Below are positions 3,942 through 43,237 of a stretch of DNA of 64,000 nucleotides, piece after piece; the first letter of the stretch is position 1, and every line of letters starts with the position of its first letter. Made by a program: the position numbers and the translations under genes. The notes under the pieces were generated by a model that ran no database searches, was not told where the DNA came from, and worked only from the letters and a program-made list of their open reading frames with translations. This DNA comes from an uncultured Verrucomicrobia subdivision 3 bacterium (lineage in GTDB: Bacteria; Verrucomicrobiota; Verrucomicrobiia; Limisphaerales; UBA11358). The stretch spans positions 5,274 through 69,273 of the forward strand of contig CAISYZ010000089.1 in assembly GCA_903889895.1 (NCBI GenBank), given 5' to 3'.

Positions 3942-6617
3942 ATGAACGCGAAATCTTATGTCCGCTTTTCGGCCCTGTTCGCCGCCGCCGTATTTGTGAA
4001 TTCTCCGTTGCGGGCGGATGATTTTGTGACCACCGCCGCGCCGGTCGCGCGCGCGGGCGATGCGCTCATCACGCCGGCCAACCAACTCGTCACGCCCGCC
4101 GGCACCCAGGTGGAACTCGCTGGCATCCGGCCGAACGCGCTGGCGTTGAGTCCGGACGGCCAACTGCTCGTTACCTCCGGCATCGCCCATGAATTGGTGG
4201 TGGTTGACCCATCTACGGGAAATGTTTTGCAGCACGTCCCGCTGCCTTCTGGCAAGATTCTGGAGCCGCAGCCGATTACGTCCGCGATTCTCGGCGCGGA
4301 TGAAAAGGCGCAGTTGAGTTTCACCGGCTTGGCCTTTGCCCCCGACGGCACGCGGCTTTATCTCGCCAACGTCAGCGGCGACGTGAAGGTTTTCGCCATC
4401 GGCTCCAACCACAAGGTTGCGCCGCTGTTCTCCATCGCGCTGCCGCCGGCGAATGCGCCGAGTCGCGTGAACGAAATTCCCGCCGGCCTCGCCGTTTCCG
4501 CCGATGGCAAAAAACTTTACGTCGCGGGCAATCTTTCCAACCGCCTGCTGGAACTTGACGCCGCCAGCGGAAAAGTTTTGCGCACATGGGATGTCGGCGT
4601 CGCGCCGTTCGACGTGGTGCTGGCTGGCCACCAGATTTACGTCAGCAACTGGGGCGGTCGCCGGCCGGACGCGGGTAGCGTGACCGGTCCGGCGGGGCAG
4701 GGCACGCTCGTGCGCGTGGACGCGCGCAGCATTGCCAGCGAAGGTTCGGTGACGGTGATTGATCTGGCGCAAGGCGCGGTTGCGGCGGTGCCGCGCGAAA
4801 TCATCATCGGCCCGCATGCGAGCGCCCTGGCGCTGGCGCCCAACGGCAGGTTTCTCGTCGCCGCCAGTTCGGGCAGCGACATGTTGAGCGTCATTGATAC
4901 GCACAGCGACGAGGTGATTGACACCATCACCACGCGGCAGACGCCGGGCGATCCGTTTGGCGCGCAGCCGGACGCGCTGGCGTTCGATGCCTCGGGAAAA
5001 ATCCTTTTCTGCGCCAACGCCTCGCAGAACGCCGTCGCCGTCTTCAAGTTCGCGCCGCGAGGGACGACGCTGCTGGGCCTAATTCCCACCGGCTGGTTTC
5101 CGGCGGCGCTGGCGTTTGACGCGCGCGGCAAAAGACTGTGCGTCGCCAATTTGAAAAATCTCGCCCCGCGGACCGAGCGGGCCAAGCTGGGCGCGGACGG
5201 CTTCGGTTTCAACACCAAGCAATACACCGGTTCGCTCTCGCTGATTCCCGTGCCCGCGAAGAGCGAGCTGGCGGTGTTCACGCAGCACGCGCTCGCGAAC
5301 CTGCGCTACCCGCTGCTTGCGCAGGCCGCGTTGCCGCCGCGTCCGAACCGCGCGCCGCAGCCGGTGCCCGAGCGCGCCGGCGAGGTGAGCGTGTTCAAGC
5401 ATGTCATTTACATCATCAAGGAAAACCGCACTTACGACCAGGTGCTCGGCGATGTGGCGGAAGGCAATGGCGACGCGGCGCTGTGCAATTTCGGCGAACG
5501 CATCACGCCCAATGAGCACAAGCTCGTCCGTGAATTCGCGCTGCTGGACAACACCTACTGCTGCGGCATCCTCAGCGCGGACGGCCACAACTGGGCGGAC
5601 AGCGGCCTCGCCACGGATTATCTGGAGCGCTCCTTTGCGGGCTGGCCGCGCAGTTATCCCAGCGGCGGCTTCGGGCTGGCGGGTGCGGATGCGCTGGCCT
5701 ATTCGCCCGCCGGGTTCATTTGGGACAACGCGCTCGCACACGGCAAAACCGTCCATGACTTTGGCGAATTTTGCACGACGAGCAAGCGCTGGAAAACCCC
5801 CACCCGCACCGCCAAGATTGGTTTCGCCGAGGCGTGGCGGGATTTCACCAGCGGCGCGAATGAGATTGAATACACCTGCGAACCGGACATCGCGGCGCTG
5901 GGGCCGTTCATAGAAACGAACTGGGTGAGTTGGGACCTCAGCGTGCCGGACGCCGTGCGCGCGGCGAAATTCACCGCGCGGCTGAAGGAATTTGAGAAGA
6001 CCGGCAACCTGCCCGCGCTGACCATTCTTTGGCTGCCCAACGACCACACCGAAGGCACCAAGCCCGGCGCGCCCACGCCCGCCGCCATGCTGGCCGACAA
6101 CGACCGCGCGCTCGGCCAAATTATCGAAGCCGTGAGCCGCAGCCCCTTCTGGAAGGACACCTGCATCTTCGCAATTGAGGACGACCCGCAGAACGGTTGG
6201 GACCACGTCAGCGGCTATCGCACCACGGCCTACGTGGCCAGTGCATACACCCGGCGGCACGCCGTCATCCACACCCAATACAACCAGACCAGCCTGCTGC
6301 GCACCATGGAGCTGGTGCTCGGTCTCCCGCCGATGAACCAGTTTGACGCCACGGCCACGCCGATGTTCGATTGCTTTACCAACCAGCCGGACTTCGCGGC
6401 CTTCAGCGCGGTGACGAACAACGTGCCGCTGGACGAAATAAACTTGGCGCTGAAAAAACTGTTCGGGGCGCAGCGGCAGGACGCCGTGGTTTCCGCCCGG
6501 CTCCCGCTCGACCAGCCCGACCAATGCGACGAGAACGTGCTGAACCGCATTCTCTGGCGCGCGACGATGGGGACGTCGTATCCCGCCTGGGCGGTGAAAG
6601 TGGTGGATGACGACTGA
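3942..6617 (+). CDS. Secreted fusion protein: N-terminal YVTN/YncE-type beta-propeller plus C-terminal phosphoesterase (phospholipase C / AcpA family) domain
   Basis: 891 aa with a signal peptide ('FSALFAAAVFVNSPLRA'). The N-terminal half has repeated 'DG..LYVAN / SDMLSVID' propeller blades. The C-terminal half carries 'HVIYIIKENRTYDQVLGD', 'LDNTYCCG.LSADGHNW' and 'LWLPNDHTEG', characteristic of the phosphoesterase family. Confidence 0.75.
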   Translation: MNAKSYVRFSALFAAAVFVNSPLRADDFVTTAAPVARAGDALITPANQLVTPAGTQVELAGIRPNALALSPDGQLLVTSGIAHELVVVDPSTGNVLQHVPLPSGKILEPQPITSAILGADEKAQLSFTGLAFAPDGTRLYLANVSGDVKVFAIGSNHKVAPLFSIALPPANAPSRVNEIPAGLAVSADGKKLYVAGNLSNRLLELDAASGKVLRTWDVGVAPFDVVLAGHQIYVSNWGGRRPDAGSVTGPAGQGTLVRVDARSIASEGSVTVIDLAQGAVAAVPREIIIGPHASALALAPNGRFLVAASSGSDMLSVIDTHSDEVIDTITTRQTPGDPFGAQPDALAFDASGKILFCANASQNAVAVFKFAPRGTTLLGLIPTGWFPAALAFDARGKRLCVANLKNLAPRTERAKLGADGFGFNTKQYTGSLSLIPVPAKSELAVFTQHALANLRYPLLAQAALPPRPNRAPQPVPERAGEVSVFKHVIYIIKENRTYDQVLGDVAEGNGDAALCNFGERITPNEHKLVREFALLDNTYCCGILSADGHNWADSGLATDYLERSFAGWPRSYPSGGFGLAGADALAYSPAGFIWDNALAHGKTVHDFGEFCTTSKRWKTPTRTAKIGFAEAWRDFTSGANEIEYTCEPDIAALGPFIETNWVSWDLSVPDAVRAAKFTARLKEFEKTGNLPALTILWLPNDHTEGTKPGAPTPAAMLADNDRALGQIIEAVSRSPFWKDTCIFAIEDDPQNGWDHVSGYRTTAYVASAYTRRHAVIHTQYNQTSLLRTMELVLGLPPMNQFDATATPMFDCFTNQPDFAAFSAVTNNVPLDEINLALKKLFGAQRQDAVVSARLPLDQPDQCDENVLNRILWRATMGTSYPAWAVKVVDDD

Positions 6618-6659
6618 AGGCGGATACAGACTTGGCAGCCAATCAGTCTGTTAGGCCAC
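6592..6659 (+). repeat. Partial copy (L1) of the island repeat R, ending in GTTAGGCCAC. It overlaps the last 8 codons and the stop of the phosphoesterase gene.
   Basis: Manual alignment to 36626-36692 gives about 57 of 68 identical positions with one 1-nt indel. It contains the hairpin ACAGACTTGG-CAG-CCAA(TCA)GTCTGT. Confidence 0.7.
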
Positions 6660-7004
6660 TTGGCTATCTCACTAATTTGTGCCATGAATCACATCGGCCA
6701 CTACTTGGTTTGTGCTAGCAGGCTGCTTAATAATCAATCGCAACTTGCGCTCTTTTTCGGTGTCGGCATGAACGGCATACCAGCGGTAATATTTCGAAAT
6801 GGGTTATCAAGTTGGTGGATTTTCGCGAGCTACCCACCCTCGGTCACACGCATAGGGCAAGGCAGAAAATTTCGGTGAATTGAGGACAAGGATGGTGCGT
6901 TTAAGGGCGTTATTTTGCGCAAAGCCCTCTCTGCACAGGAAATTAAACTTTGGCAATTAGTTGCGCCTCTGCCACTCTTTTGCGCGATTTCATAATTTCC
7001 ACGC

Positions 7005-12462: not shown

Positions 12463-13656
12463 ATGAAAAAGCTGGTTTCAATCTTCACAGTTGCCGTTGT
12501 GCTCGTCGGAGTTTTTTGTGCGCCCGTTGCCCAAGCCGCCGTGCTGGCACAGGCTTCACCCACCAATTCACCGCCGCCCGGTGTGGAGATTGCCAAGACA
12601 CTTTCCACCATCACCGGCGTGGCCATTTCGCCGCTGCTGGGTGTCAGCGCGGTTGGCTGTTACCAATGGAGCAAGGCCAAGACTGACGCGGAAAAAGCCA
12701 AACTGCCGTGGTTCGCAAATCCATTGTTCTGGGTGCCGGCAATTTTGCTGTTGGTCGCTTGCTTCATCAAAGACACCGCCGGCGTGGCGTTGCCGACCGT
12801 TGCCAAAAAACCTTTTGACGCGCTTGAAACCGTCGAGCATAAAATCTCCGGTCTCGTCGCCACCGGCGCGTTTGTGCCGATCATGGTCAACATCATTCAC
12901 GAGGCCAACTCCACCGGTGGCCAACCCGTCGCGTCTCTGAGTTCGCTCGGTTTTGCCGCGATGGATTTTAGCTGGCTCTACAATGTGCTGGTGACGCCCG
13001 TGGCGATGGCGGCATTTTTCATTGTCTTTCTCGCCTCCAATGCCATCAACATCCTCATTCTCATGAGCCCGTTCACGACCGTGGATACGGCGCTCAAGGG
13101 ATTCCGAACGCTGATTCTGGCCAGCGTCGCCGGGACGGCGTTCATGAATCCGTGGGTCGGCGCAGCTTGGGCACTGATAGTCCTGTTGATTTCATATTTC
13201 ATCGCCGGCTGGAGTTTCAGGTTGTCACACTTCGGCTTAGTGTTCATCTGGGAATTTTTCACCGGCAGCAAAGGTCGTTTCCATCCCGACGCCAAGGAAA
13301 ATAAAATGTTTCTCGGCCGCAAAATTGAAAAAGTTCCCACGCGCACCTACGGCAAATTGTTTCGCAATGAAAAGAGCGAACTAGTTTTCGACTACCATCC
13401 GTGGCTGGTGTTGCCAAAACGCACGCTGATTCTGCCCGCCGGCAATTACGAAGCCGGGCGCGGACTCTTCTACTCCGAAATTTTACGGGTCGAAGGCGAT
13501 TCTGCGAAAACCGTGATTCTGCTGCCACCGCGCTATCGCGGCCACGAGGAAGAGATCGCAAAGATTTATAATTTTGCCGGCGTCCGCGATGTCGGTATCC
13601 GCGCCGCGTGGGCTTGGTTCAAAAGCCTGTTCGGCAGCAAAACGGCCGTGGCTTGA
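12463..13656 (+). CDS. Polytopic membrane protein of unknown function with a soluble C-terminal domain
   Basis: 397 aa, with a signal peptide and at least 6 hydrophobic segments. Codon usage is consistent with the neighbouring genes. No family was recognised. Confidence 0.5.
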   Translation: MKKLVSIFTVAVVLVGVFCAPVAQAAVLAQASPTNSPPPGVEIAKTLSTITGVAISPLLGVSAVGCYQWSKAKTDAEKAKLPWFANPLFWVPAILLLVACFIKDTAGVALPTVAKKPFDALETVEHKISGLVATGAFVPIMVNIIHEANSTGGQPVASLSSLGFAAMDFSWLYNVLVTPVAMAAFFIVFLASNAINILILMSPFTTVDTALKGFRTLILASVAGTAFMNPWVGAAWALIVLLISYFIAGWSFRLSHFGLVFIWEFFTGSKGRFHPDAKENKMFLGRKIEKVPTRTYGKLFRNEKSELVFDYHPWLVLPKRTLILPAGNYEAGRGLFYSEILRVEGDSAKTVILLPPRYRGHEEEIAKIYNFAGVRDVGIRAAWAWFKSLFGSKTAVA

Positions 13657-15305: not shown

Positions 15306-15941
15306 ATGGCCAAAGATACCTTGGACACCCGCCAGTTGATTCTCCGCGCCGCGCTCAAGCGGTTCGCGAACGGCGGCTATGCGGCCACATCCGTCCAGGA
15401 TATCGTGGACGACGCGCAGGTTTCCAAGCCGGCGCTTTATTATCATTTCAAGGACAAGGCCGGGCTGTTCCAAGCGCTCGTCCATGAGGCGCATGACGAA
15501 CGCTACCGCATCCTCCGCGAGGCGGCGGCGCAGGCTGAAGGCATTCGCGCGCAACTGGAGAACATTCTTGCCGGGCTGTTCGATTACTTCGGCAAAAACC
15601 GCGAGCTGATGCGGATTTCCTTCGCCACCATGTTCGCCGCGCCGGGCGAGGTGCCGGAAAACCTGTCCTACACCGACAAGTGCGAGCGCAATTTTGAATT
15701 CGTCCGCTCGCTCATCAAGCGCGCCCAGAAGTCCGGCGAACTGGACAAACATTTTGACTGTCAGGAATTGGCATTTGGTTTTTACGGACTGGCCAATTTT
15801 CACCTTGTCGGGCATCTCGTCTGCAAGGACTGCCAGCCGGACCGCTTGACTGCGCAACGCGTGGTGGAATTATTTCTGGCCGGCGCCGCTCCGAAGGCGG
15901 ATGCAAAAAAAATACGGGTTCAATCCAAGGAGAAAAAATGA
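15306..15941 (+). CDS. TetR/AcrR family transcriptional regulator
   Basis: 211 aa. The N-terminal HTH is 'RQLILRAALKRFANGGYAATSVQDIVDDAQVSKPALYYHF'. Confidence 0.85.
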   Translation: MAKDTLDTRQLILRAALKRFANGGYAATSVQDIVDDAQVSKPALYYHFKDKAGLFQALVHEAHDERYRILREAAAQAEGIRAQLENILAGLFDYFGKNRELMRISFATMFAAPGEVPENLSYTDKCERNFEFVRSLIKRAQKSGELDKHFDCQELAFGFYGLANFHLVGHLVCKDCQPDRLTAQRVVELFLAGAAPKADAKKIRVQSKEKK

Positions 15942-17062
15942 AGAAAAAAATAGTTTTTGGCATCATTATCGTGGTGGCTGTCGCCGGCGGGCTGGCAGCG
16001 GTGAAGGCGTTGCAAATCAAAACTCTCATCGGTTCCGCCGCGTTATTCGCGCCGCCGCCGGAAACCATCGCGACGGCTGTGGCGCACGCAGAAAACTGGG
16101 CGGACACGCTGCCGGCCGTCGGTTCGGTGAGCGCGGCGCAAGGCGTGACTGTCGCGCCGGAAATTGCCGGCACGATTACGGAAATCGCCTTTGAATCCGG
16201 GGCGACCGTGAAGCAGGGCGATTTATTGTTGAAACTCGACACGTCGTCCGAGGACGCGCAGTTGCGCGCGGCCGAGGCGCAGACGGAACTCGCGCGGCTC
16301 AACGCGGAGCGCAACCGTAAATTGATCGAAGACAAAACCGTTTCACAGTCCGAACTTGACACGACCGAGGCGACGTTGAAACAGGCACAGGCAAATGCCG
16401 ATGCCATCCGTGCCATCATCCAAAAGAAAACTATCCGCGCGCCGTTCGCTGGCAAGCTCGGCATCCGGCTGGTGAACCTCGGCGAATCGCTGGCGGTTGG
16501 GCAGGGTATCGTCTCGCTGCAATCGCTCTCGCCGGTGTTTGTAGATTTTTCGCTCCCGCAACAGGAGTTTGCGCAGTTGCAGACCGGCCTCAAGGTGCGC
16601 GCGTTTCTGGATGCGTATCCGACCAACCAGTTTGAAGGCGAACTGGCCGCGATCAATCCCGACCTCGACGCGGTGACGCGCAGCGTGCGGGTGCGTGCGA
16701 AGTTTGCGAATGATGGCGAACTGCTCCGCGCCGGCATGTTTGCGCGAGTGAGCGTGATTTTGCCGGAGGAGCAACCGGTGCTGGTCGTGCCGTCCACGGC
16801 GGTCATGAGCGCGCCGTATGGCGACTCGGTTTTTGTCATTACACCCGATGACAAACCGGGTTCAACCAATCTTGTGGCGCAGCAGAAATTTGTCCGCACG
16901 GGCCGGATGCACGGTGATTTTATCAGCGTGGAAACCGGCTTGAAAGCGGGCGACAAGGTCGCGACCGCCGGCTTGTTCAAGCTCCGCAATGGCATCAGCG
17001 TGCGCGAAAATAACGAGCTGGCGCCCAAGCCGTCGCTCGCGCCCAATCCGCCGAACACCTGA
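15938..17062 (+). CDS. Efflux RND transporter periplasmic adaptor (membrane fusion protein)
   Basis: 374 aa. It has lipoyl, hairpin and beta-barrel architecture and contains 'IRAPFAGKLGIR'. Its start forms an ATGA overlap with the tetR stop. Confidence 0.85.
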   Translation: MKKKIVFGIIIVVAVAGGLAAVKALQIKTLIGSAALFAPPPETIATAVAHAENWADTLPAVGSVSAAQGVTVAPEIAGTITEIAFESGATVKQGDLLLKLDTSSEDAQLRAAEAQTELARLNAERNRKLIEDKTVSQSELDTTEATLKQAQANADAIRAIIQKKTIRAPFAGKLGIRLVNLGESLAVGQGIVSLQSLSPVFVDFSLPQQEFAQLQTGLKVRAFLDAYPTNQFEGELAAINPDLDAVTRSVRVRAKFANDGELLRAGMFARVSVILPEEQPVLVVPSTAVMSAPYGDSVFVITPDDKPGSTNLVAQQKFVRTGRMHGDFISVETGLKAGDKVATAGLFKLRNGISVRENNELAPKPSLAPNPPNT

Positions 17063-28952: not shown

Positions 28953-31166
28953 TTAATGGATCGTTTTACCGCGCGTGCAGGAGGATTGCGCGCCGTCAAC
29001 CAGCCGCGCATTCGCCGCCGCGCGGAAAATTCGCAGCAGGCCGTAATCGTATTTCTCGCCCAGCAGTTCGCGCGCGCCGACGATGTTGCCCCAGCCCGTG
29101 CGCTTGAACGCCGCAGCGATTTCCGCCTGGGCTTCCGCGCTGATGAGCTGTGCTAGATCAATTGGTTCGCCCGCCTCGATTGCGGTGCCGAGATGGCCGT
29201 AAATCGTGCCGACCGTCAGCCCGCGGGCTTCGGCTATTTCCGCCGGTGAATCGCCGGCGCGAAAACGGCGCAGCGTTTCGCGGGCGGTGTCGCCGAGGCT
29301 GGAACGCTGCGCCACGGGCACAACGAAGGAATCATCGGCAAACATCTGGCGCGGGTTTGTCGCCAGATGCGCGGCAATCTCGCCGAGAAATACTTCGCCA
29401 AACTCGCGTAGTTTCTTTTCGCCGACGCCGCTGATGCGGGCGAGGTCGCTTTCGCCGGCCGGATAATTCCGCGCCATCTGCCGCAGTGAAACGTCGGAGA
29501 AAATGATGTAGGCCGGCACGTCGCGTTCGTCGGCCAGCCGCTTGCGCAGTTCGCGCAGCCGCTCGAACAGCACCTCGTCGCAAGCGATTTCGCCGATGTG
29601 ATGTTTTTTAGTCTCCGGCGCGGTGACGGGCTTGGTGAGCGTGACCTTGGCGCGCGACTTGAGAATCGCCGCGCCGGCATTGGTCAATTCTAGCGTGCTG
29701 AATTTCTCCGTGGTCTGCCGGAGAAAACCGAGGCGCACCAATTCGCGGCCGATGGCCGCCCATTCCGGCCGGCTGTGTTCTTTGCCGATGCCAAAGGTGG
29801 AAAGCTGCGCGTGATCCCATTTGCGAATTTTATCCGTGTCCGCGCCGGTGAGGACTTCCACGACGTGATTCAGCCCGACACCAAAACCGTTCTTCTCGCG
29901 GATGCGGAAAACGCAGGACAGAAATTTCTGCGCTGCGAGCGTGCCGTCGAACGTCGCGCGCGGCGAAAGACAATTATCGCATGCACCGCAGTCATCGGCG
30001 GAAAATTCCTCGCCGAAATACGCCAGCAATTCTGTGCGCCTGCATGCTGCGCACTCGGCGTAGTGAACCATCTGTTGCAACTGTTCGCGCGCGATCTGCC
30101 GCTCCTGCGGATTCGGTTTTTCGTCAATGAACGTCGTCTGTTTCACCGCGTCGCCGGCGCTGAAAAGCAAAACACATTCGCCGGGCAAGCCGTCGCGGCC
30201 CGCGCGACCGGTTTCCTGATAATAGCCCTCGATATTTTTCGGCAGGTCGTAGTGGACGACGAAGCGCACGTTCGGCTTGTTGATGCCCATGCCGAAGGCG
30301 ATGGTCGCGCAGACCACGCGGATGTTATCGCGCAAAAAAAGTTCCTGATGCTCGCTGCGCTCCTTCGGCGTCAGCCCGGCGTGATATGGTTTGGCCTTGA
30401 TGCCGTTTTCGCTCAGCCGCTCCGCGACGCTTTCCGCGCCTTTGCGCGAGAGGCAATAGACGATGCCACTTTCCTTGGGCCGCGAGCGGAGAAATTCAAA
30501 CAGCTGGTCAAACGGCTTATTCTTGGCGATGACGCGGTAGGTGAGGTTGGGCCGGTTGAAGCTGGCGACATAGCATTTCGGCTCGCGCAATTTCAGGTGC
30601 GTGACTATGTCCTCGCGCACGCGGCCGGTGGCGGTGGCGGTGAGCGCCATGAACGGCACTTGGGGAAAAAGTTTTCGCAGTTCGGAAATTTGCCGGTATT
30701 CCGGGCGGAAATCGTGGCCCCATTCGCTGATGCAATGCGCCTCGTCAATGGCGATGAGCTGGACGTTCCACTTTTGCAAATCGCTGAGAAAACCGGACAA
30801 CATCAGCCGCTCCGGCGCGACGTAGAGCAGGCGGTATTCGCTGTTGTGCAGGCCGCGCAGGCGCTTCCGTGATTCCTCGGCGGCGAGCGAGGAGTTCAAA
30901 AATGTTGCCGCGATGCCGCTGGCTTGCAGCGCGTCCACCTGATCTTTCATCAATGCTATCAAGGGTGAAACGACGACGGTGAGGCCGTCGCGCGCGAGCG
31001 CGGGAAGCTGGAAGCAAAGTGATTTGCCGCCGCCGGTCGGCAGCAGTGCGAAGACATCCTTGCCGGCGAGCGAGTCGCGGATGATTTCCTCCTGCAACGG
31101 GCGGAACGAGGTGAAGCCGAAGTATTGCTTCAGCAACGGGAGCAGGTTGGGCGAAACGGATTTCAA
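28953..31166 (-). CDS. recQ: ATP-dependent DNA helicase RecQ (with an extended C-terminal HTH-like tail)
   Basis: 737 aa. 'LPTGGGKSLCFQLPA', 'DEAHCISEWGHDFRPEY' and the zinc motif 'CRR..LL.YFGE....CG.CDNC' are present, together with an HRDC region. Confidence 0.9.
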   Translation of the reverse strand: MKSVSPNLLPLLKQYFGFTSFRPLQEEIIRDSLAGKDVFALLPTGGGKSLCFQLPALARDGLTVVVSPLIALMKDQVDALQASGIAATFLNSSLAAEESRKRLRGLHNSEYRLLYVAPERLMLSGFLSDLQKWNVQLIAIDEAHCISEWGHDFRPEYRQISELRKLFPQVPFMALTATATGRVREDIVTHLKLREPKCYVASFNRPNLTYRVIAKNKPFDQLFEFLRSRPKESGIVYCLSRKGAESVAERLSENGIKAKPYHAGLTPKERSEHQELFLRDNIRVVCATIAFGMGINKPNVRFVVHYDLPKNIEGYYQETGRAGRDGLPGECVLLFSAGDAVKQTTFIDEKPNPQERQIAREQLQQMVHYAECAACRRTELLAYFGEEFSADDCGACDNCLSPRATFDGTLAAQKFLSCVFRIREKNGFGVGLNHVVEVLTGADTDKIRKWDHAQLSTFGIGKEHSRPEWAAIGRELVRLGFLRQTTEKFSTLELTNAGAAILKSRAKVTLTKPVTAPETKKHHIGEIACDEVLFERLRELRKRLADERDVPAYIIFSDVSLRQMARNYPAGESDLARISGVGEKKLREFGEVFLGEIAAHLATNPRQMFADDSFVVPVAQRSSLGDTARETLRRFRAGDSPAEIAEARGLTVGTIYGHLGTAIEAGEPIDLAQLISAEAQAEIAAAFKRTGWGNIVGARELLGEKYDYGLLRIFRAAANARLVDGAQSSCTRGKTIH

Positions 31167-36572: not shown

Positions 36573-36692
36573 CCGCGCCTGTCGAGCAAGATGCGTGGGC
36601 GGAGCCGGAAAAAACTTACGCGGGACGGTGAAAGTGGGAATGCCGACGGAAGGCAGAATCAGGCTTGGCCGCCTATCAGTCTGTTAGGACAC
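36573..36692 (+). repeat. Island repeat R (copy 1), ending in GTTAGGACAC
   Basis: This is a direct repeat of 37328-37441. The first ~75 nt differ at only 2-3 positions by manual alignment, and the last ~45 nt have diverged. The right part is homologous to 6592-6659. Confidence 0.85.
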
Positions 36693-36696
36693 ATGG

Positions 36697-36987
36697 TCAT
36701 AAAACACCCCTCAAATGCCAAATCCAACAGGACAGAAAAAAGGAAACGAGAATCACTGGAAAATATCCGAACCGAATCAACTCAATATCCAGACGACTCG
36801 GAGACTGCGGATGCCGCCAAATCAACACGGCTGCGCCTCCCCAAAACGAAACCAAAGCGATGCCGCAAATCTCAGCAATGCCGCCACCATCCAAAATCAA
36901 CAAGGCCAAAAGCCCCAAAACAATCTGGAGCGCAATCGCCTCGAAAATCGGGCTGTCATACTTTGGTGAAATCGGTATCCGTTTCAT
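36697..36987 (-). CDS. Cassette ORF 1: small 3-TM membrane protein, unknown function
   Basis: 96 aa from the ATG at 36987 ('MKRIPISPKYDSPIFEAIALQIVLGLLALLIL...'). A TTG at 37041 would add 18 aa. The region is AT-richer than its flanks. The opposite-strand ORF is a K/R-rich shadow. Confidence 0.4.
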   Translation of the reverse strand: MKRIPISPKYDSPIFEAIALQIVLGLLALLILDGGGIAEICGIALVSFWGGAAVLIWRHPQSPSRLDIELIRFGYFPVILVSFFLSCWIWHLRGVL

Positions 36988-36998
36988 GGTGTGCGAAT

Positions 36999-37039
36999 GT
37001 GGTCTAACAATTATTAGACCCCAGCTTTTGTGGCCTATC
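36999..37039 (+). repeat. Boundary motif copies to the right of cassette 1: GTGGTCTAAC (inside the palindrome GGTCTAA-caatta-TTAGACC) and GTGGCCTATC
   Basis: These motifs are in inverted orientation relative to GTTAGGACAC at 36683-36692. Confidence 0.6.
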
Positions 37040-37159
37040 AAGTTTCACGGAAACGAGATTGCGCTGCCTGTAAATCCTTGTCCAGCCCGTTCTATGGGCG
37101 AATGCACCCGGCACCGGAACCGGCACCGGCGGCAAAACCGTCCGCCCGCCATTCGGCCT

Positions 37160-37334
37160 TCAAAACTCCGCATCCAGCTTCAGCACGCAATGCCCCAGGT
37201 CTAGCCGCGAGCCGTTCGCCTCCGGTTGGAGGTGCGCCGCCAGCTTGTAGAGCCGGCCATAACCCGTCGTTACCAGCCCCGCCTTCCGCAACACGGCCAT
37301 GTGCTTGGAAACCTTCGGCGCCGTGCTCCGCGCC
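37160..37334 (-). pseudogene. Truncated 3' copy (last ~57 codons plus stop) of the wHTH regulator gene at 38084-38401
   Basis: Only 2 of 175 nt differ from 38084-38258, and both differences are synonymous Leu codons. Homology stops abruptly at CCGCGCC (37328-37334), where repeat R' begins. Weaker homology continues downstream to about 37078 (matching about 38004). Confidence 0.8.
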
Positions 37335-37441
37335 TGTCGAGCAAGATGCGTGGGCGGAGCCGGAAAAAACTAACGGCGGGACGGTGAAAGTGGGAATGCC
37401 GACGGAATCAGGCATGGCAGTCTAGCTCGGTATTAGGCCAC
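37328..37441 (+). repeat. Island repeat R' (copy 2), ending in TTAGGCCAC
   Basis: See 36573-36692. It is fused through a shared 7-bp CCGCGCC to the truncated HTH copy. Confidence 0.85.
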
Positions 37442-37448
37442 GGATCTC

Positions 37449-37907
37449 TCATTGATTGTGTGAAACATCCAAAGTGCAACTCACTGTAAAGTTCGTGCCA
37501 TCAAATCCAAATCGGTATGGTGACAAAACATAATACCCAAGGGTGCAGTGCTGGGTCTGCTCAATAAACGTCCCCTTCTGGTCATACGACAATATCAAAC
37601 CACCGGGTGGGATTTGAAGGTAGCACAAATGAACCTGCGAATACTCCGGCAGATAATGTGTCTCTACTAAAGCCTGCACATTAGTCGGCCAGTGACCGAA
37701 TCTCTCGCGATAAAGTCTGGCTCGCTGATATAGAGCAGCCTGATGCGTCTGACAAATATCCAATGCTTCATTTGCTCGCCCATGGGCATATTCAGATCTC
37801 TCCGCTTCATTTGCTCGCTCAAAATATAGATAGCACGCACTACTACCTGCGACTATGCCAGCAGCAAAAGCGAGGCTTAATGCTAAAACTCTGGCCAGTA
37901 TTTTCAT
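37449..37907 (-). CDS. Cassette ORF 2: small exported or membrane-anchored protein, unknown function (weak pseudopilin-like flavour)
   Basis: 152 aa, with an N-terminal hydrophobic anchor 'MKILARVLALSLAFAAGIVAG'. 'FGHWPTNVQALVETHYLPE' resembles GspG/pilin-type segments. The region is clearly AT-richer. An alternative ATG at 37928 lies inside the boundary motif (ATGTTAGGCCAC). Confidence 0.5.
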   Translation of the reverse strand: MKILARVLALSLAFAAGIVAGSSACYLYFERANEAERSEYAHGRANEALDICQTHQAALYQRARLYRERFGHWPTNVQALVETHYLPEYSQVHLCYLQIPPGGLILSYDQKGTFIEQTQHCTLGYYVLSPYRFGFDGTNFTVSCTLDVSHNQ

Positions 37908-37916
37908 AAGCGTGAA

Positions 37917-37957
37917 GTGGCCTAACATCCAAGTCGGCCAAGTTGGTTTGATTGTTC
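37917..37957 (+). repeat. Inverted copy of the R right end (GTGGCCTAACATCCAAGTCGGCCAAGTTGG...) bounding cassette 2
   Basis: It shares GTGGCCTAACA and CGGCCAAG with the reverse complements of 36652-36692 and 6618-6659. Confidence 0.6.
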
Positions 37958-38083
37958 GTGCATATCTAGGTTGTGGAGAAAAACTATGCTGGGCACAAGT
38001 GGATGTCCAACCTGTTCTATTGGCGAATGAACTTTGGACCGCCACCGGAACCGGCGGCAACGCGTCCGCCCGACCTTCGGCCT

Positions 38084-38401
38084 TCAAAACTCCGCATCCA
38101 ACTTCAGCACGCAATGCCCCAGGTCCAGCCGCGAGCCGTTCGCCTCCGGTTGGAGGTGCGCCGCCAGCTTGTAGAGCCGGCCATAACCCGTCGTTACCAG
38201 CCCCGCCTTCCGCAACACGGCCATGTGCTTGGAAACCTTCGGCGCCGTGCTCCGCGCCAGTCCCGCCAACACCCAGACCGGCAGCGCCTCGCCTTTGGCC
38301 AGCTCCTTCAGAATCCGCCAGCGCACCGGGTCGTGCAACACGGTGGCCAAGTGCCTTAGTTTGGTGGCCGACGAAGTGGTGGTGGGTTCGGAGGTATTCA
38401 T
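38084..38401 (-). CDS. ArsR-like winged helix-turn-helix transcriptional regulator
   Basis: 105 aa from the ATG at 38401. 'LHDPVRWRILKELAKGEALPVWVLAGLARSTAPKVSKHMAVLRKAGLV' is the ArsR/SmtB-type HTH pattern. Confidence 0.65.
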   Translation of the reverse strand: MNTSEPTTTSSATKLRHLATVLHDPVRWRILKELAKGEALPVWVLAGLARSTAPKVSKHMAVLRKAGLVTTGYGRLYKLAAHLQPEANGSRLDLGHCVLKLDAEF

Positions 38402-38827
38402 ACCCCCAGCCAACACCCTTTCGCCCCCCGCCGTCAAGCCTTTTAAGCCAGCGGACGACTTGCAGAGACGAACGGACGAGCATCAGAAGAAAACCAACGC
38501 ACTTGAAAACCAAACATACGGATAACCAAAACGAACGGACGACTGCCAGAAGAATAAAAAGCGGTATGGAAAGCAGATAAATATATGAACAAAGCAAACA
38601 AACGATTATAAAGCTCTAACAGACGGCAACCAAAAGCAAATATATGACTTGTATCATCACGCAGATGCCGAAACTTCGTTCACAAAGGCGTTCCGGCTCG
38701 ATTCGAAGGCGCTCGGGAGGTGGGCGAACCGGGTTTTTACCGCGAAATACTCGAAATACGCGAAAGCGGTTTAATCGGGAGTCCCCCGTTCGCGTATTTC
38801 GCGTGGTTTGCGGTGAAAACCAGCTGC

Positions 38828-41800
38828 TTATTCTTCGGCGAACAGGTATTCCAAGTCCACTGCCGTGAGGCTGCGGGCAAAACCTTCTTCGCCGAGCACG
38901 TCGGCAATGGTCTTGGCCTTGGATTGCTGGAGTTCCCAGATTTTTTCCTCCACCGTGCCGGGCGCGATGAGCCGGTAGGCGTTCACCGTCTGCGTCTGGC
39001 CGATGCGGTGCGAGCGGTCAATGGCCTGCGCCTCCACCGCCGGGTTCCACCACGGGTCGTAAAGCACCACGTAGCTGGCGTTGGTGAGGTTCAGGCCGGT
39101 GCCGGCGGCGCGCAGGCTCAGCAGGAACACGCTCGCGCCGGTGTCTTTCTGGAAATCGTTGACGACGGACTGGCGGTCCTTGGTCTGGCCGGTGAGGGTG
39201 TGCGTGCGGATGTTGCGCGCCTGGCATTCCTTCTCCAGCAGTTGCAGCATCTGCACAAACTGCGAGAAGACGAGCACCTTCTGGCCGTCGGCGATGAGCG
39301 GGTCGAGCAGTTCGAACAGGGTGTCGGTCTTGCCGCTGGCGGTGTCGCTGCCCACGAGCGACGGATGGCAGCACACCTGCCGCAACCGCGTGAGCGCGGC
39401 GAGGACGTGCATCTTGGATTTGTTGAGGCCCTGCGTCTCGACGGCCTTCATCACCTGGTCGCGGCTGCGGCGCAACTCGGCGAGGTAAAGTTTCCGCTGA
39501 TCTTCGCCCAGCGGGCAATCGCGGCGTTCCTCGATGCGGTCGGGCAAATCTTTCGCGACGTGTTTTTTCAGGCGGCGCAGCAGCAGCGGGCGCAGCTTGG
39601 CGGACAGGCGCCGGCGCGCGATGCGTTGCTCGGCCTCGGCATTCTCGCCGCCCTTCGGCTCGTAGGTGTCGAGGAACTGTTCCTGGTTGCCGAGGTAGCC
39701 GGGCTGGATGAAATCCACGATGCTCCACAAATCCAACAGGCGGTTTTCCAACGGCGTGCCGGTGAGCGCGATCTTGTGTTCGCACTTCAACTGTTTGACG
39801 GATTGCGTGACTTGCGCGCCGGGGTTCTTGATGAACTGCGCCTCGTCCAGAATGACGGCGCGGAAGGCGAACTTGTGAAATTCCTCGAGGTCGCGGCGGA
39901 GCAGGGCGTAGTTGGTGACGATGAGGTCGTGCTGCGGAATCTGCTTCCGCAAATTATGGCGCGCCGCGCCGCTTTCGAGCACGAGCACCTTCATGTCCGG
40001 CGTGAACTTCTCCGCCTCGCGCCGCCAGTTGTGCAGCACGGACGCGGGACAGATGACGAGCGACGGCTTGGGATTCTTTTTGTTCTGCTCCTTGAGCCAC
40101 GCGAGCCAGGTCAAGGTTTGGAGCGTTTTGCCCAAGCCCATGTCGTCGGCCAGAATGCCGCCGAGCTTCACTCCCACGAGGTGCGCAAGGAAATCGAAGC
40201 CGTCCTTCTGATACGGCCGCAGTTCCGCCTGCAAACCCGCCGGCAGTTGCGCCGCCGGCACGCCCTTGAAATCCTTGACGCGTTCGCGCAAGGCCTGCGC
40301 CTCCGGCGAATCCACGAAGCGTTGCAAGCCGCCCTCGTCCAGATGCGCGACGTGTTCGAGCCCGACCTTCTGCGGCACGGCGATAAGACCGTCCACGCCC
40401 ATGTCGGCCATGGCCTCATGCGCGCCCTGCACGGCGGCGGTGTCGAGTTCCACCCAGCCGGCGTTCGGCAGCTTGACGAAACGGCTCGTCGCGGCGGCCA
40501 GACGGTCAAGGTCGGCCTTGGAAAGCTTCATGCCTTCCGCTTCCCATTCGGCGGAGACGGCGAGCCAGTCAATGCCGCTGCCCTTCACAACGAGGCGCGG
40601 CTTGAGCTGGCGTGGCTTGAGGAAGAGATGGTGGAACGCGGGGTTGCCGAGGAATTCGGCGTCGGCCGGCTTCGTGCCCCACGCGTCGGCGAGCAGGCCG
40701 AGGAAGTTTTCATTCGCATCGCCAATCCACAGCCCGGGTTCCTGCATGAACCAGTCGAGTTTGCGCAGCCAGTGCACCGCCGGTTCGAGGCGCGGGTCGT
40801 CGAGGATTTCCGGCTTGTCGCCGGGTTTGATGACGCGGCCGTGCGGCGTCCACTCGTGGCCGTTCCAGACCCAGGTGCTTTTGTCGCGCAGGCTTTTCGC
40901 CATGAGCCGCAACTGCACGGTGTCGTCCTGCAATTCAAACACGAACTGCGGCGTCGCCGGATGTGCGATGCAAAGCTGGTCCCAGTCCACGCCCTGATTG
41001 GCCTGCGACTTGCGCAGATGCAGCAGCAGGCGGTGGCTCAGCTTGCGCACCGGCACGGACGGTTTTTGCGCGAGATATTTCAGCACGCCGTTCGGCGGCG
41101 CGTTGCGGAGCAGATAAAAAGTGTTGCCGATGAGCGCAATCGGCGACTGGCGGTTGAAGAACTTCGCCTCGGCGATGGGATGGAACTTTCCGTCCGGCAG
41201 CGCGATGCGGTGCGTGAAGGCCAGTTCCTGCGTGCCGTTCTCGAGTTGCGGCGTGAGCGAAATGACTTCGCCGTGGAAATCAATCGGCATGCCGTTGCCG
41301 GCGAGTTCGAGACGGCCGGTGTTGCCCCAGCGCGCGAGCCATTGCAGCAGCTCGGCGTCGGTCAGCAGCAGCGAAGTCTCGTGGCCGGCGCGCTCGCGGT
41401 GCGTGTCGTAAATCCACTGGATGAATTCCCAGTCCCACGGCGTGAACAGCTCCTGCTCGTGCGCGGCGCGGACAACGAGGTCCACGAGGTCGTGCAGCGA
41501 GCGCGCCTTCTCGCCGGTGCGCGGGCGCAGCAGCAGAAATTGCAGCAGCATCCGGTGGCGCGACGGGTCGGCTTCGTCCGCCTGCGGCTTGCCGACGACG
41601 CGGAGCGTGGCGCGCGGTGTGTCGAGATGCAGCGGGGCGGAGGGCGCGAGCCAGTTTTCCAGTTCGCGGACGAGGCGGAGTTCCTGTTCGGCTTCCTCGG
41701 CGCGGGCGAACCGTTCCGGGCTGGCGTGCGGCTGCAATTCCGGCGGCACGGAGCGCTTGGCGCGCAGAAACAGAAACGCGAGTTCTTCCAGCCGCGCCTT

Positions 41801-42124
41801 GCCGGTGGCGGCGAGCATTTTCGGCCACCAGTCGTTCGCGGGAAAATCGCGGCGCGAGAGCGAGAGCTTCTCGAAATAATCCTCCAGTGCCAGCCACGCG
41901 CGCTGCGAGTCCGGGCAGGCGGCGAAGGTGCGCAGGATGTCCTCGCGCTCGTTGACGGTGGTTTTGGAGTCGGAAAGTTCGCGGCGCAGGTCGGCAAAAG
42001 CGCCGTAAGTCTGCGACAAAACCTTGTGGTGTGCGTCGTATTTGCTCGCGCCCGCGCGCGGCGTTCCGTTCCCGTTTCTGATTGGCGTTCTCGGCATCTG
42101 GGCAAAATTACTATGTTCTATCAT
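38828..42124 (-). CDS. SNF2/RapA-family helicase with a ~540-aa uncharacterised N-terminal region
   Basis: Helicase motifs are present: '[14 protein letters not shown]', '[11 protein letters not shown]', '[10 protein letters not shown]', '[15 protein letters not shown]' and '[21 protein letters not shown]'. I chose the start at 42124 (or 42097). The longer ORF to 42961 is antisense to asd. Confidence 0.85.
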   Translation of the reverse strand: [1098 protein letters not shown]

Positions 42125-42232
42125 TTCGACACAACCCGCGTTGGCGGTCAATCGCAAAGCAAAAGTTTTTTGGTCGGGAAGGCGGCGGGCGATTGACGGT
42201 TGGATGAATTTTGTTAAGCTGTCCGGCCATTT

Positions 42233-43237
42233 ATGAACCGCAATCCACACGTTGCAATTGTCGGTGCCACCGGCGCGGTCGGCATCGAGATGATCAAGAC
42301 CCTTGAAAAGCGGAATTTTCCCGTGGGCAAGCTCACGCTGCTCGCGTCCGCCCGTTCGGTCGGCAAGAAACTCAAGTTCAAGGGGCAGGACATCACCGTG
42401 ACGGAACTGACGAAGGATTCGTTTGCGGGCATTGACATCGCGCTCTTTAGCGCCGGCGGCGGCATCTCGAAGGAATTTGCCCCCATCGCCGCCAAGGCCG
42501 GCTGCGTGGTCGTGGACAACTCCAGCGCGTTCCGCCAGGACCCGAACGTGCCGCTGGTCGTGCCGGAGATCAATGCCGCCGACGTGAAGAAACACAAGGG
42601 CATCATCGCCAATCCGAATTGCACCACGGCCATCACGCTGATGGCGCTGTATCCGCTGCACCAGGCGTTCGGCGTGAAGCGCATTTTTGCCTCCAGCTAC
42701 CAGGCTGTTTCCGGCACGGGCGCGAAGGCTTTGGAAGAGCTGGAAAAACAGGTTGACCAAATTGTCCACAAGCAGCCGGTGACGAAGGAAGTCTATCCGC
42801 ACCAGATCGCGTTCAATGTGATTCCGCATGTGGACTCGTTTTTGGCCACCGGCTACACCAAGGAAGAGATGAAGATGGAAAACGAAGGCCGCAAGATCAT
42901 GCACCATGACAAGTTCCGCGCCAGCGTGACCTGCGTGCGCGTGCCGGTCTATCGGTCGCACTCCATTGCTGTGAGCGCGGAATTCGAGAAGCCGGTGTCG
43001 CTCGACGCGGCGCGCGCGGTTTTGAAGAAGGCGCCCGGTCTTGACGTCGTGGACGAGCCGGAGAACAAGAAATATCCGATGCCGCTGTTCACCTCCGAGA
43101 AATACAACTGCGAGGTCGGCCGCCTGCGCCTCGATTGCGCGCTGGATAACGGCCTGTGCTTCTGGGTCAGCGGCGATCAGCTGCTCAAGGGCGCCGCGCT
43201 CAACGCGGTGCAGATCGCGGAAGAGTTGGTGAAATAA
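42233..43237 (+). CDS. asd: Aspartate-semialdehyde dehydrogenase
   Basis: 334 aa, with 'VAIVGATGAVG', 'IIANPNCTT' and 'SYQAVSGTG'. Confidence 0.9.
   Translation: MNRNPHVAIVGATGAVGIEMIKTLEKRNFPVGKLTLLASARSVGKKLKFKGQDITVTELTKDSFAGIDIALFSAGGGISKEFAPIAAKAGCVVVDNSSAFRQDPNVPLVVPEINAADVKKHKGIIANPNCTTAITLMALYPLHQAFGVKRIFASSYQAVSGTGAKALEELEKQVDQIVHKQPVTKEVYPHQIAFNVIPHVDSFLATGYTKEEMKMENEGRKIMHHDKFRASVTCVRVPVYRSHSIAVSAEFEKPVSLDAARAVLKKAPGLDVVDEPENKKYPMPLFTSEKYNCEVGRLRLDCALDNGLCFWVSGDQLLKGAALNAVQIAEELVK

Follow-up and report, generated by a model that had tools for sequence, protein, structure and literature searches.

Integron-type gene cassettes, probably decayed, at a strain-variable arsR-like/carB site of an uncultured Verrucomicrobiota lineage

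Integrons have been reported in Verrucomicrobia (PMC4889954), and clusters of attC sites or single attC sites that lack an integron integrase are distinguished as the classes CALIN and SALIN, respectively (PMC4889954, PMC9024848, bioRxiv 10.1101/2022.09.11.507474). Integrase-driven insertion outside att sites, together with imprecise excision that alters the flanks, has been demonstrated experimentally (bioRxiv 10.1101/2022.09.11.507474). The DNA analyzed here, a 64-kb stretch from an uncultured Verrucomicrobia subdivision 3 bacterium (the window; contigs of its relatives are labelled L001, L172 and so on), carries two small open reading frames (ORFs), cassettes 1 and 2, between a gene for an arsR-like helix-turn-helix (HTH) protein and carB. 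The short inverted motifs that bracket each ORF are the core (R', G|TTRRRY) and inverse-core (R'', RYYYAAC) boxes of integron-type gene cassettes. They are drawn from the same cassette pool as the canonical arrays of an uncultured Verrucomicrobiota lineage, and the arsR-like/carB gap is a polymorphic, strain-variable cassette site. The arrangement as a whole is probably (about 0.7) explained by decayed solo integron cassettes that were inserted at a strain-variable hot spot and whose attC bodies were later lost.

Like the cassettes of sedentary chromosomal integrons, those of the window begin with G|TTRRRY and a short leader, contain a single small ORF and no promoter-like site that could be found, and have a GC content below that of the host; the RYYYAAC box after the stop codon complements the first bases of the same cassette, and the same cassette occurs in arrays of related genomes with homogeneous hairpin attC sites. 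Unlike in sedentary integrons, the attC body (L'', loop and L') is missing from the window, so that no attC is complete, no integrase and no attI beside one is seen within the 64 kb, and the cassettes stand singly or are parted by duplicated host DNA instead of attC. With CALIN and SALIN loci the window shares cassettes outside a recognizable integron, with no integrase nearby, in a phylum with reported integrons. However, those classes are defined by a detectable attC, and models specific to this lineage detect none in the window. Solo cassettes at ordinary chromosomal sites, a left junction of the form G|TT and a phosphoesterase 3'-end flank that moved with a cassette to a second locus all recall the attG insertions of Loot et al., in which, however, the whole attC is kept; the junctions of the window also fit the attG consensus (GWT plus CRGM) no more than loosely. 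As attC is kept on the attG route, the window is only partly explained by it.

In the pdif (Xer) modules of Acinetobacter plasmids, too, short two-arm recombination sites in inverted orientation flank a small unit, but the boxes of the window are demonstrably attC ends. Neither the sequence of the window sites nor their arm and spacer layout matches dif. The minimal mobile elements of Neisseria likewise place different genes between the same two conserved genes across strains, and homology of the flanks is probably the present route of exchange at the hot spot; unlike those elements, the modules of the window have specific end-boxes and precise common junctions. The system is that of integron cassettes, which is known, and not a miniature inverted-repeat transposable element (MITE), a dif-type module or a regulatory palindrome; what is new is a lineage-specific attC family and decayed solo cassettes that the CALIN and SALIN classes would miss. 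A homogeneous attC family and large cassette arrays are documented in uncultured freshwater and peat Verrucomicrobiota, and the window offers a natural example of cassettes outside an array with their end-boxes kept and the folded site lost. Such cassettes occupy a strain-variable hot spot beside housekeeping genes, and host DNA can be dragged with them to a second locus. This bears on the `domestication' of cassettes and on the under-counting of cassette-derived genes by attC-based detectors.

An earlier reading of the window from its letters alone (the sequence-only reading) had located GTTAGGACAC at 36683-36692, GTGGTCTAAC at 36999-37008, GTGGCCTATC at 37030-37039, TTAGGCCAC at 37433-37441, GTGGCCTAAC at 37917-37926 and a degenerate copy, CTCTAACAGACGG, at 38614-38626, and all of these positions are correct. 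The motif is also enriched and placed at ORF borders. With at most one mismatch, GTGGCCTAAC occurs seven times in the window (2.0 expected; seven reached in 0/100 shuffles), five times within 36683-37926 and once at 6650-6659, and the composite sites described below all lie at cassette borders. The proposed fit to the integron core and inverse-core consensus holds, with the boxes bounding small single-ORF modules. Both stop codons lie 4-7 nt ahead of the 3' motif, in line with the statement that each cassette ends just before it. The start codons are differently placed from the suggested 14 nt or so after the motif start, lying 19-21 nt from its first base and 9-11 nt past its end. The in-frame ATGTTAGGCCAC and TTGATAGGCCAC are present as described, although the downstream ATGs are the likelier start codons. 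The palindrome GGTCTAA-N6-TTAGACC with its 7-bp stem was confirmed at 37001-37020; on its own this hairpin is no more stable than shuffled sequence on folding (z -0.83).

The identity of the boxes follows from hairpin sites in related loci. A covariance model (R1) was built from three such sites, in L001 (same species) and in the relatives L134 and L156, and was refined to a model of 23 sequences (R2). The richest source is L172, a 16.8-kb contig with 29 small same-strand ORFs and an IS110-family transposase at its end, on which R1 identifies 21 plus-strand sites (E 8e-24 to 6e-5), every one of them between ORFs, and R2 identifies 23, one cut off by the contig start. In the alignment of 23 sites from L172, L001, L134 and L156, 95.3% of cells are paired, compared with 89.7% in shuffles, compensatory changes occur in nine pairs (1.9 expected; reached in 0/500 shuffles) and slid registers pair at only 19-50%. 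The consensus, auaauGuGGCCUAAC-cAGUC-GCCGGAGCCaACcGcCg...cGgCgGuGGCUC-AGCUUUguuC-GUUAGGCcaCuUcac, opens with GuGGCCUAAC and closes with GUUAGGCcaC, so that R'' corresponds to GTGGCCTAAC and R' to GTTAGGCCAC, exactly the motifs noted in the window. In the related arrays the boxes are extended to a pair of ~10-12 bp that closes an attC hairpin of 70-115 nt, and complete attC sites are found in L001, L134, L156 and L172. The suggestion that the motifs originate from site-specific recombination is thus supported, since in a related array the same boxes pair as R'' and R' at the ends of attC hairpins, more than 20 in number and backed by covariation.

Two further features of L172 were observed. The array adjoins the transposase gene (Transposase_20, 15545-16693), with no intI at that end; some members of the IS110 family target attC sites. 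Its cargo includes a toxin-immunity-like CdiI_3 protein (12931-13254).

Cassette 2 has 38 relatives of the same length (~152 aa) with 57-100% identity, some of them named Verrucomicrobiae by their sources. The family is present in at least five contexts including two arrays (L172, L156, the rpsT side of L157, the GH2 side of L164, and L155); one relative belongs to a series of small ORFs, at least 24 of them, all on one strand, and relative P0005, 84% identical to cassette 2, is located in array L172. Identity to cassette 2 is 57-87% for the relatives of array L172 and of four or more further contexts. In a five-way alignment of the window, arrays L172 and L156, the copy next to rpsT in L157 and the copy between GH2 and HEAT-repeat genes in L164, homology is confined to the segment from G|TTAGGCCAC through GTGGCCTAA and the sequences outside it are unrelated. 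The same cassette thus occupies different arrays and sites, indicating that the cassette 2 family is mobile as a unit.

The two ends of each cassette also match one another. Every hot-spot cassette starts with TT(A/T)G... some 10-14 nt ahead of its ATG and ends in the reverse complement of its own start, giving the start/end pairs TTAGGCCAC/GTGGCCTAA, TTAGACCAC/GTGTCCTAA, TTAGCCACTC/GAGTGGCCTAA, TTAGGCGTAT/ATACGCCTAA and TTTGGCGGC/GCCGCCTAT. Beyond the common four-base core, the complementarity of self ends over eight cassettes is 43, compared with 33.0 +/- 3.1 for non-self ends, a value reached in 40 of 40320 permutations (p about 0.001); over 19 cassettes of L172 it is 112, compared with 77.7 +/- 5.8 (0/20000 permutations). 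An inverse core that complements the first bases of its own cassette is characteristic of integron cassettes. In addition, cassette 1 and the first cassette of L172, the ORFs of which are unrelated, agree at 20/22 nt over the 5' boundary and leader and at 16/17 nt over the 3' boundary.

Two relatives of cassette 2 have different surroundings. In L155 (4132-7894) a relative with 78% identity has a DAHP_synth_1 gene on one side and a Hydrolase_3 gene on the other, with LptD_N-like and ABC-transporter genes downstream, in what is taken as a kdsA-kdsC-lpt cluster; as this copy lacks end-boxes, the cassette gene may be fully domesticated there. In L171 (10380-10546) only the 3' end of a relative is left, as part of a spurious ORF of 164 aa, and the GGTGGTTTAGTTTTTTTGCGG that follows it resembles the ...CCGCCGTTAGTTTTTTCCGG junction of the window.

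Alleles of the hot spot were collected by exact-protein look-up, as contigs with a carB protein identical to that of the window. At least five different cassette alleles occupy the arsR-like/carB gap between identical flanks. The arrangement of the window recurs in L004, L149 and L152, and cassette 1 stands alone behind a full-length arsR-like gene in L153. L003 carries a different 151-aa ORF and L006 a different 83-aa ORF (216-467), while in L001/L002 a lipoprotein-like ORF of 132 aa precedes a full attC, a hairpin site of 107 nt, after which a further cassette is present. The four alleles with leader v1 diverge at a single point, ...GGTCTAA(C/T)AATTG|TT, and cassettes 1 and 2 begin with G|TTAGACCAC and G|TTAGGCCAC, respectively, each a G|TTRRRY start with a short leader. 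The sites had been read as possible inversion sites, which is not indicated by the alleles, all of which have the same ORF orientation. In a metagenome scan, arsR-like relatives of 57-88% identity are followed by a convergent epimerase gene and by no cassettes, which makes the hot spot specific to this species.

In a related species with an 88% identical arsR-like protein, a variable region is observed upstream of the arsR-like gene instead. In one such strain (L138, 1900-5000) the SNF2 gene is followed by several small ORFs; in another (L143, 490-4330), where no SNF2 match was seen, an ORF of 1278 aa precedes the arsR-like gene; and in L134 a cassette with a 69-nt attC occupies that position.

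The two cassettes of the window had appeared to stand in a row, an arrangement that did not prove to be an integron-style array. The 3' part of the arsR-like gene is tandemly duplicated (37139-37338 and 38063-38262, 98% identical over 200 nt), so that a unit of arsR 3' part, leader, cassette and element A (a segment of ~70 nt considered below) is repeated with a different cassette in each copy. The joint of the repeat is a 7-nt microhomology, CCGCGCC (37328-37334), with the repeat upstream of carB, and a truncated arsR pseudogene remains between the cassettes. Because of this intervening copy, and because a strain with cassette 1 only (L153) exists, cassettes 1 and 2 are not adjacent in the sense of integron cassettes.

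A structure-based search for attC at 36.5-38.7 kb and 6.5-7.05 kb, which the sequence-only reading had put forward as a check, was negative with two covariance models, a heuristic R''/R' scan and folding. The best R2 match in these regions is the palindrome at 36994-37027 (10.6 bits, E 0.85), which consists of R'' and R' with the interior deleted. The heuristic scan for R''/R' pairs with inner stems gave nothing at the cassettes; in the control loci it recovered the sites of L134 and L001 and paired the R'' of L156 with a different core-like site. An attC sequence profile matches the window only over ~20 nt around the R' of cassette 2. A likeness of the flanks to attC arms noticed by eye was not significant and was dropped, and weak matches to the R models elsewhere in the window (e.g. 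29782-29869, E 0.005) are taken as chance since they lie inside coding sequence and have no R boxes.

What is present instead is a short composite site. Against 0.37 expected, the window has four matches to the pattern CTAAYN{2,6}GNTWGRC, each of them on the minus strand and at a cassette border. The recurrent forms are CTAAC AGACT GATAGGC, CTAAT AATT GTTAGAC, CTAAT ACCGA GCTAGAC and CTAAC AGACT GATTGGC. The right-hand stubs G|ATAGGCGGC and G|ATTGGCTGC partly fit GWT...CRGM, with a G|TT left junction and no attC retained. A scan of public genomes with GTCGNCATN{3,4}CACNTTCACC was set aside, as the pattern was too loose and returned only chance matches, none related to the window.

These observations are probably explained as follows. 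An integron integrase encoded elsewhere would have placed cassettes at the constant ...GGTCTAAYAATTG|TT (...AATTG|TT) site, by double-strand recombination of an attI- or attG-like site against a folded attC. The attC bodies would then have been lost, leaving R''-N(2-6)-core-like stubs and fixing the cassettes, and the exchange of alleles among strains would now depend chiefly on homologous recombination within the conserved flanks. For the window, the two-cassette allele would have arisen by unequal or illegitimate recombination at the CCGCGCC microhomology. Element A would not be a recombination site, being instead DNA from the flank of a phosphoesterase 3' end that was carried with a cassette between loci.

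Several results weigh against this explanation. With R1 and R2 run without filters, the window yields no intact attC at 36.5-38.7 or 6.5-7.05 kb, and standard integrase insertion would leave the whole site. The flanks of R' and R'' show no significant similarity to attC arms, and as no gradient of decay is seen, the loss of the attC body is inferred. The right ends of five cassettes look more regular than random decay would make them: at the arsR/carB hot spot (three copies), in the tandem cassette 2 and in the copy at 6659, the cassette stops within ~6-20 nt after R''. No integrase was found among the window ORFs tested or in the fetched loci (Pfam, tblastn). At the locus near 6600 the motif is present only once, and five strains show no variation there.

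The regular right-hand ends leave room for the stubs to be active double-stranded sites. Short `inverse core - 2-6 nt - core-like' sites could work as attI, attG and dif do, with ORF-only modules swapped or inverted at the hot spot by an integron-type integrase that needs no attC hairpin. Consistent with this, the short-site pattern is enriched and strictly confined to cassette borders, the right boundary is within ~20 nt of R'' in 5/5 cassette copies ending in element A, the attC body is likewise missing where cassette 2 stands solo, at three loci unrelated to one another, the hot spot is still polymorphic among near-identical strains, and for attG a double-stranded site cleaved at a central point has been reported (bioRxiv 10.1101/2022.09.11.507474). 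However, no cassette is seen in inverted orientation; the flanking sites are mutually inverted, which predicts inversion and not exchange; the second arm varies (GATAGGC, GCTAGAC, GCCAAGC, absent in L006) without co-variation, the two-cassette allele was made by microhomology instead, and there is no link to any enzyme. Active short sites are rather unlikely, and it is more doubtful still that the R''-N(2-6)-core-like stubs are minimal double-stranded sites for an integron-type integrase, by which ORF-only modules would be exchanged in a hairpin-independent mini-integron. If stubs of this kind were active, the picture of integrase action on genomes would change, and as exchange sites they could explain how host DNA from the flanks, the phosphoesterase fragment for example, is taken along by cassettes.

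Another possibility is that no integrase acted at the locus and that array fragments were captured by illegitimate and homologous recombination, in the manner of the Neisseria minimal mobile elements, with the boxes as mere passive remains; this is unlikely but deserves more weight. It would account for different genes between conserved flanks, for the microhomology junction and tandem duplication, for element A as copied chromosomal DNA and for the absence of attC bodies on both sides. It does not readily account for four different first cassettes that share exactly the same G|TT left junction behind a constant leader, for the allele that continues as a canonical cassette-attC-cassette array or for cassette boundaries that fall at R' and R'' in each of five independent contexts. 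A MITE-like element, also raised by the sequence-only reading, or a cargo-carrying transposon with terminal inverted repeats and a transposase encoded elsewhere is very improbable: inverted repeats of at least 10 bp do bracket each module, but they differ among modules and co-vary within each, the junctions show no target-site duplication and in arrays the boxes are the two ends of one hairpin site between ORFs. Nor is there much chance that the motifs are regulatory palindromes, such as operators for the arsR-like repressor, or serve 5'/3' pairing of cassette mRNAs. The sites do adjoin the HTH gene, and each ORF has complementary sequences at its two ends, but the motif travels with cassette 2 to loci without an arsR-like gene, is the end of a covariation-supported DNA hairpin family and has no Rfam match. 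Decay of solo integron cassettes thus remains the preferred explanation.

Element A is present in three copies (36573-36692, 37328-37441 and 6592-6659), which align with one another and in which conservation ends at the motif. The segment 6592-6617 is the final 26 nt of a beta-propeller/phosphoesterase gene, the C-terminus of which (...WAVKVVDDD) is conserved in homologs down to 61% identity. This conservation identifies the copy at 6592 as native and the carB-side copies as derived fragments with a frameshift, indicating that chromosomal flank DNA was copied between cassette sites. The phosphoesterase-like pieces beside the cassettes (36626-36688 and 37384-37441) lie ~30 kb from the native copy. 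Element A was considered as the attC of the cassettes and rejected since it forms no stable fold, either in situ or joined to the R' of its own cassette in a circular form; it also shows no consensus structure and no similarity to the attC profile. A resemblance of the regions downstream in L157 and L164 to element A was not significant and was dropped. The locus near 6600 is identical in four other strains and differs by two mismatches in a fifth.

The coordinates of the features are collected below.

Features of the window and their positions
Feature	Position	Strand	Remarks
Cassette 1 ORF, 96 aa, hydrophobic	36697-36987	-	No Pfam or PADLOC match; alone in strain L153
Cassette 2 ORF, 152 aa, N-terminal hydrophobic helix, conserved Cys	37449-37907	-	38 relatives
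R'' (inverse core) box of cassette 1, GTGTCCTAAC	36683-36692	-	With the next 12 nt (AGACT GATAGGC) an `inverse core - 5 nt - core-like' site
R' (core) box of cassette 1, G|TTAGACCAC	36999-37008	-	Alleles part ways after ...AATTG|TT
Palindrome GGTCTAA-N6-TTAGACC	37001-37020	.	Reads as an attC reduced to R''+R', an attI-like simple site
Core-like relic GATAGGCCAC	37030-37039	-	Oriented like R', 32 nt upstream of R' of cassette 1
R'' box of cassette 2, GTGGCCTAAT	37432-37441	-	
R' box of cassette 2, G|TTAGGCCAC	37917-37926	-	
Degenerate core-like copy, CCGTCTG|TTAGAG on - strand	38614-38626	-	
Leader v1 (37009-37078) and conserved tail after arsR-like stop	37009-37159	-	v1 common to four different first cassettes
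Leader v2, 77 nt, specific to the cassette 2 allele	37927-38003	-	Bounded by ACATCCA...TGGATGT
Truncated arsR-like 3' part	37160-37334	-	98% identical to 38063-38258
arsR-like HTH gene (HTH_20/HTH_5)	38084-38437	-	Upstream flank of the hot spot
carB, carbamoyl-phosphate synthase large subunit, 596 aa	34744-36534	-	Pfam domains of that enzyme
Element A, first copy	36573-36682	-	36626-36688 is 84% identical to 6592-6655 over 64 nt; rest is carB upstream
Element A, second copy	37335-37431	-	carB-upstream sequence, phosphoesterase-3'-end-like piece and variable 20 nt
Element A, third copy, source-like	6592-6659	-	GTGGCCTAAC AGACT GATTGGC; abuts the 3' end of the phosphoesterase gene (3942-6617, +)
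Low-GC gap, 345 bp	6660-7004	.	No convincing ORF; possibly a decayed cassette

On the minus strand the region begins with a gene for an SNF2-family helicase (38828-42961), followed by the arsR-like HTH gene, a conserved tail, leader v2, cassette 2, the second copy of element A (A'), the truncated arsR-like 3' copy, the conserved tail again, leader v1, cassette 1, element A and carB. Leader v1 holds both GATAGGCCAC and the palindrome GGTCTAA-N6-TTAGACC. The cassettes have a GC content of 0.46-0.49, compared with 0.60-0.68 for the genes on either side. A promoter and terminator scan of 36.4-38.9 kb gave nothing above chance, and Rfam and tRNA searches gave no matches.

The cassette proteins gave few clues to their function. 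Pfam searches returned only a sub-threshold Imm33-like match, to the 83-aa cassette of L006, and PADLOC matched no cassette protein, its sole match, Csa3, being to the HTH protein encoded by the arsR-like gene. For cassette 2 an AlphaFold model of modest confidence was obtained (mean pLDDT 65), and a Foldseek search of the PDB with this model gave no match. An integrase search by tblastn with IntI1 gave no match.

Some other features near the cassettes were observed. The carB enzyme usually has ~1070 aa. The product of the window gene (596 aa) starts midway through the usual enzyme, so that this organism seems to have a split large subunit. Just past the stop codon of the SNF2 helicase gene, at 38732-38821, lies an inverted repeat of 38 nt with 82% complementarity and a 14-nt loop, which is conserved in L001 and L002. 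The stretch upstream of the arsR-like gene (38440-38650) is AT-rich (GC ~0.40-0.48) with direct repeats at 84-nt spacing and is possibly an operator or promoter region; the homolog in L134 has a similar upstream stretch. The degenerate core-like copy is spanned by a 46-bp segment (38615-38660; GTGATGATAC...GTCTGTTAGA on the minus strand) that ends in a core-like TTAGA; this segment is present in the window and in L001 and is precisely missing from the otherwise identical strain L004.

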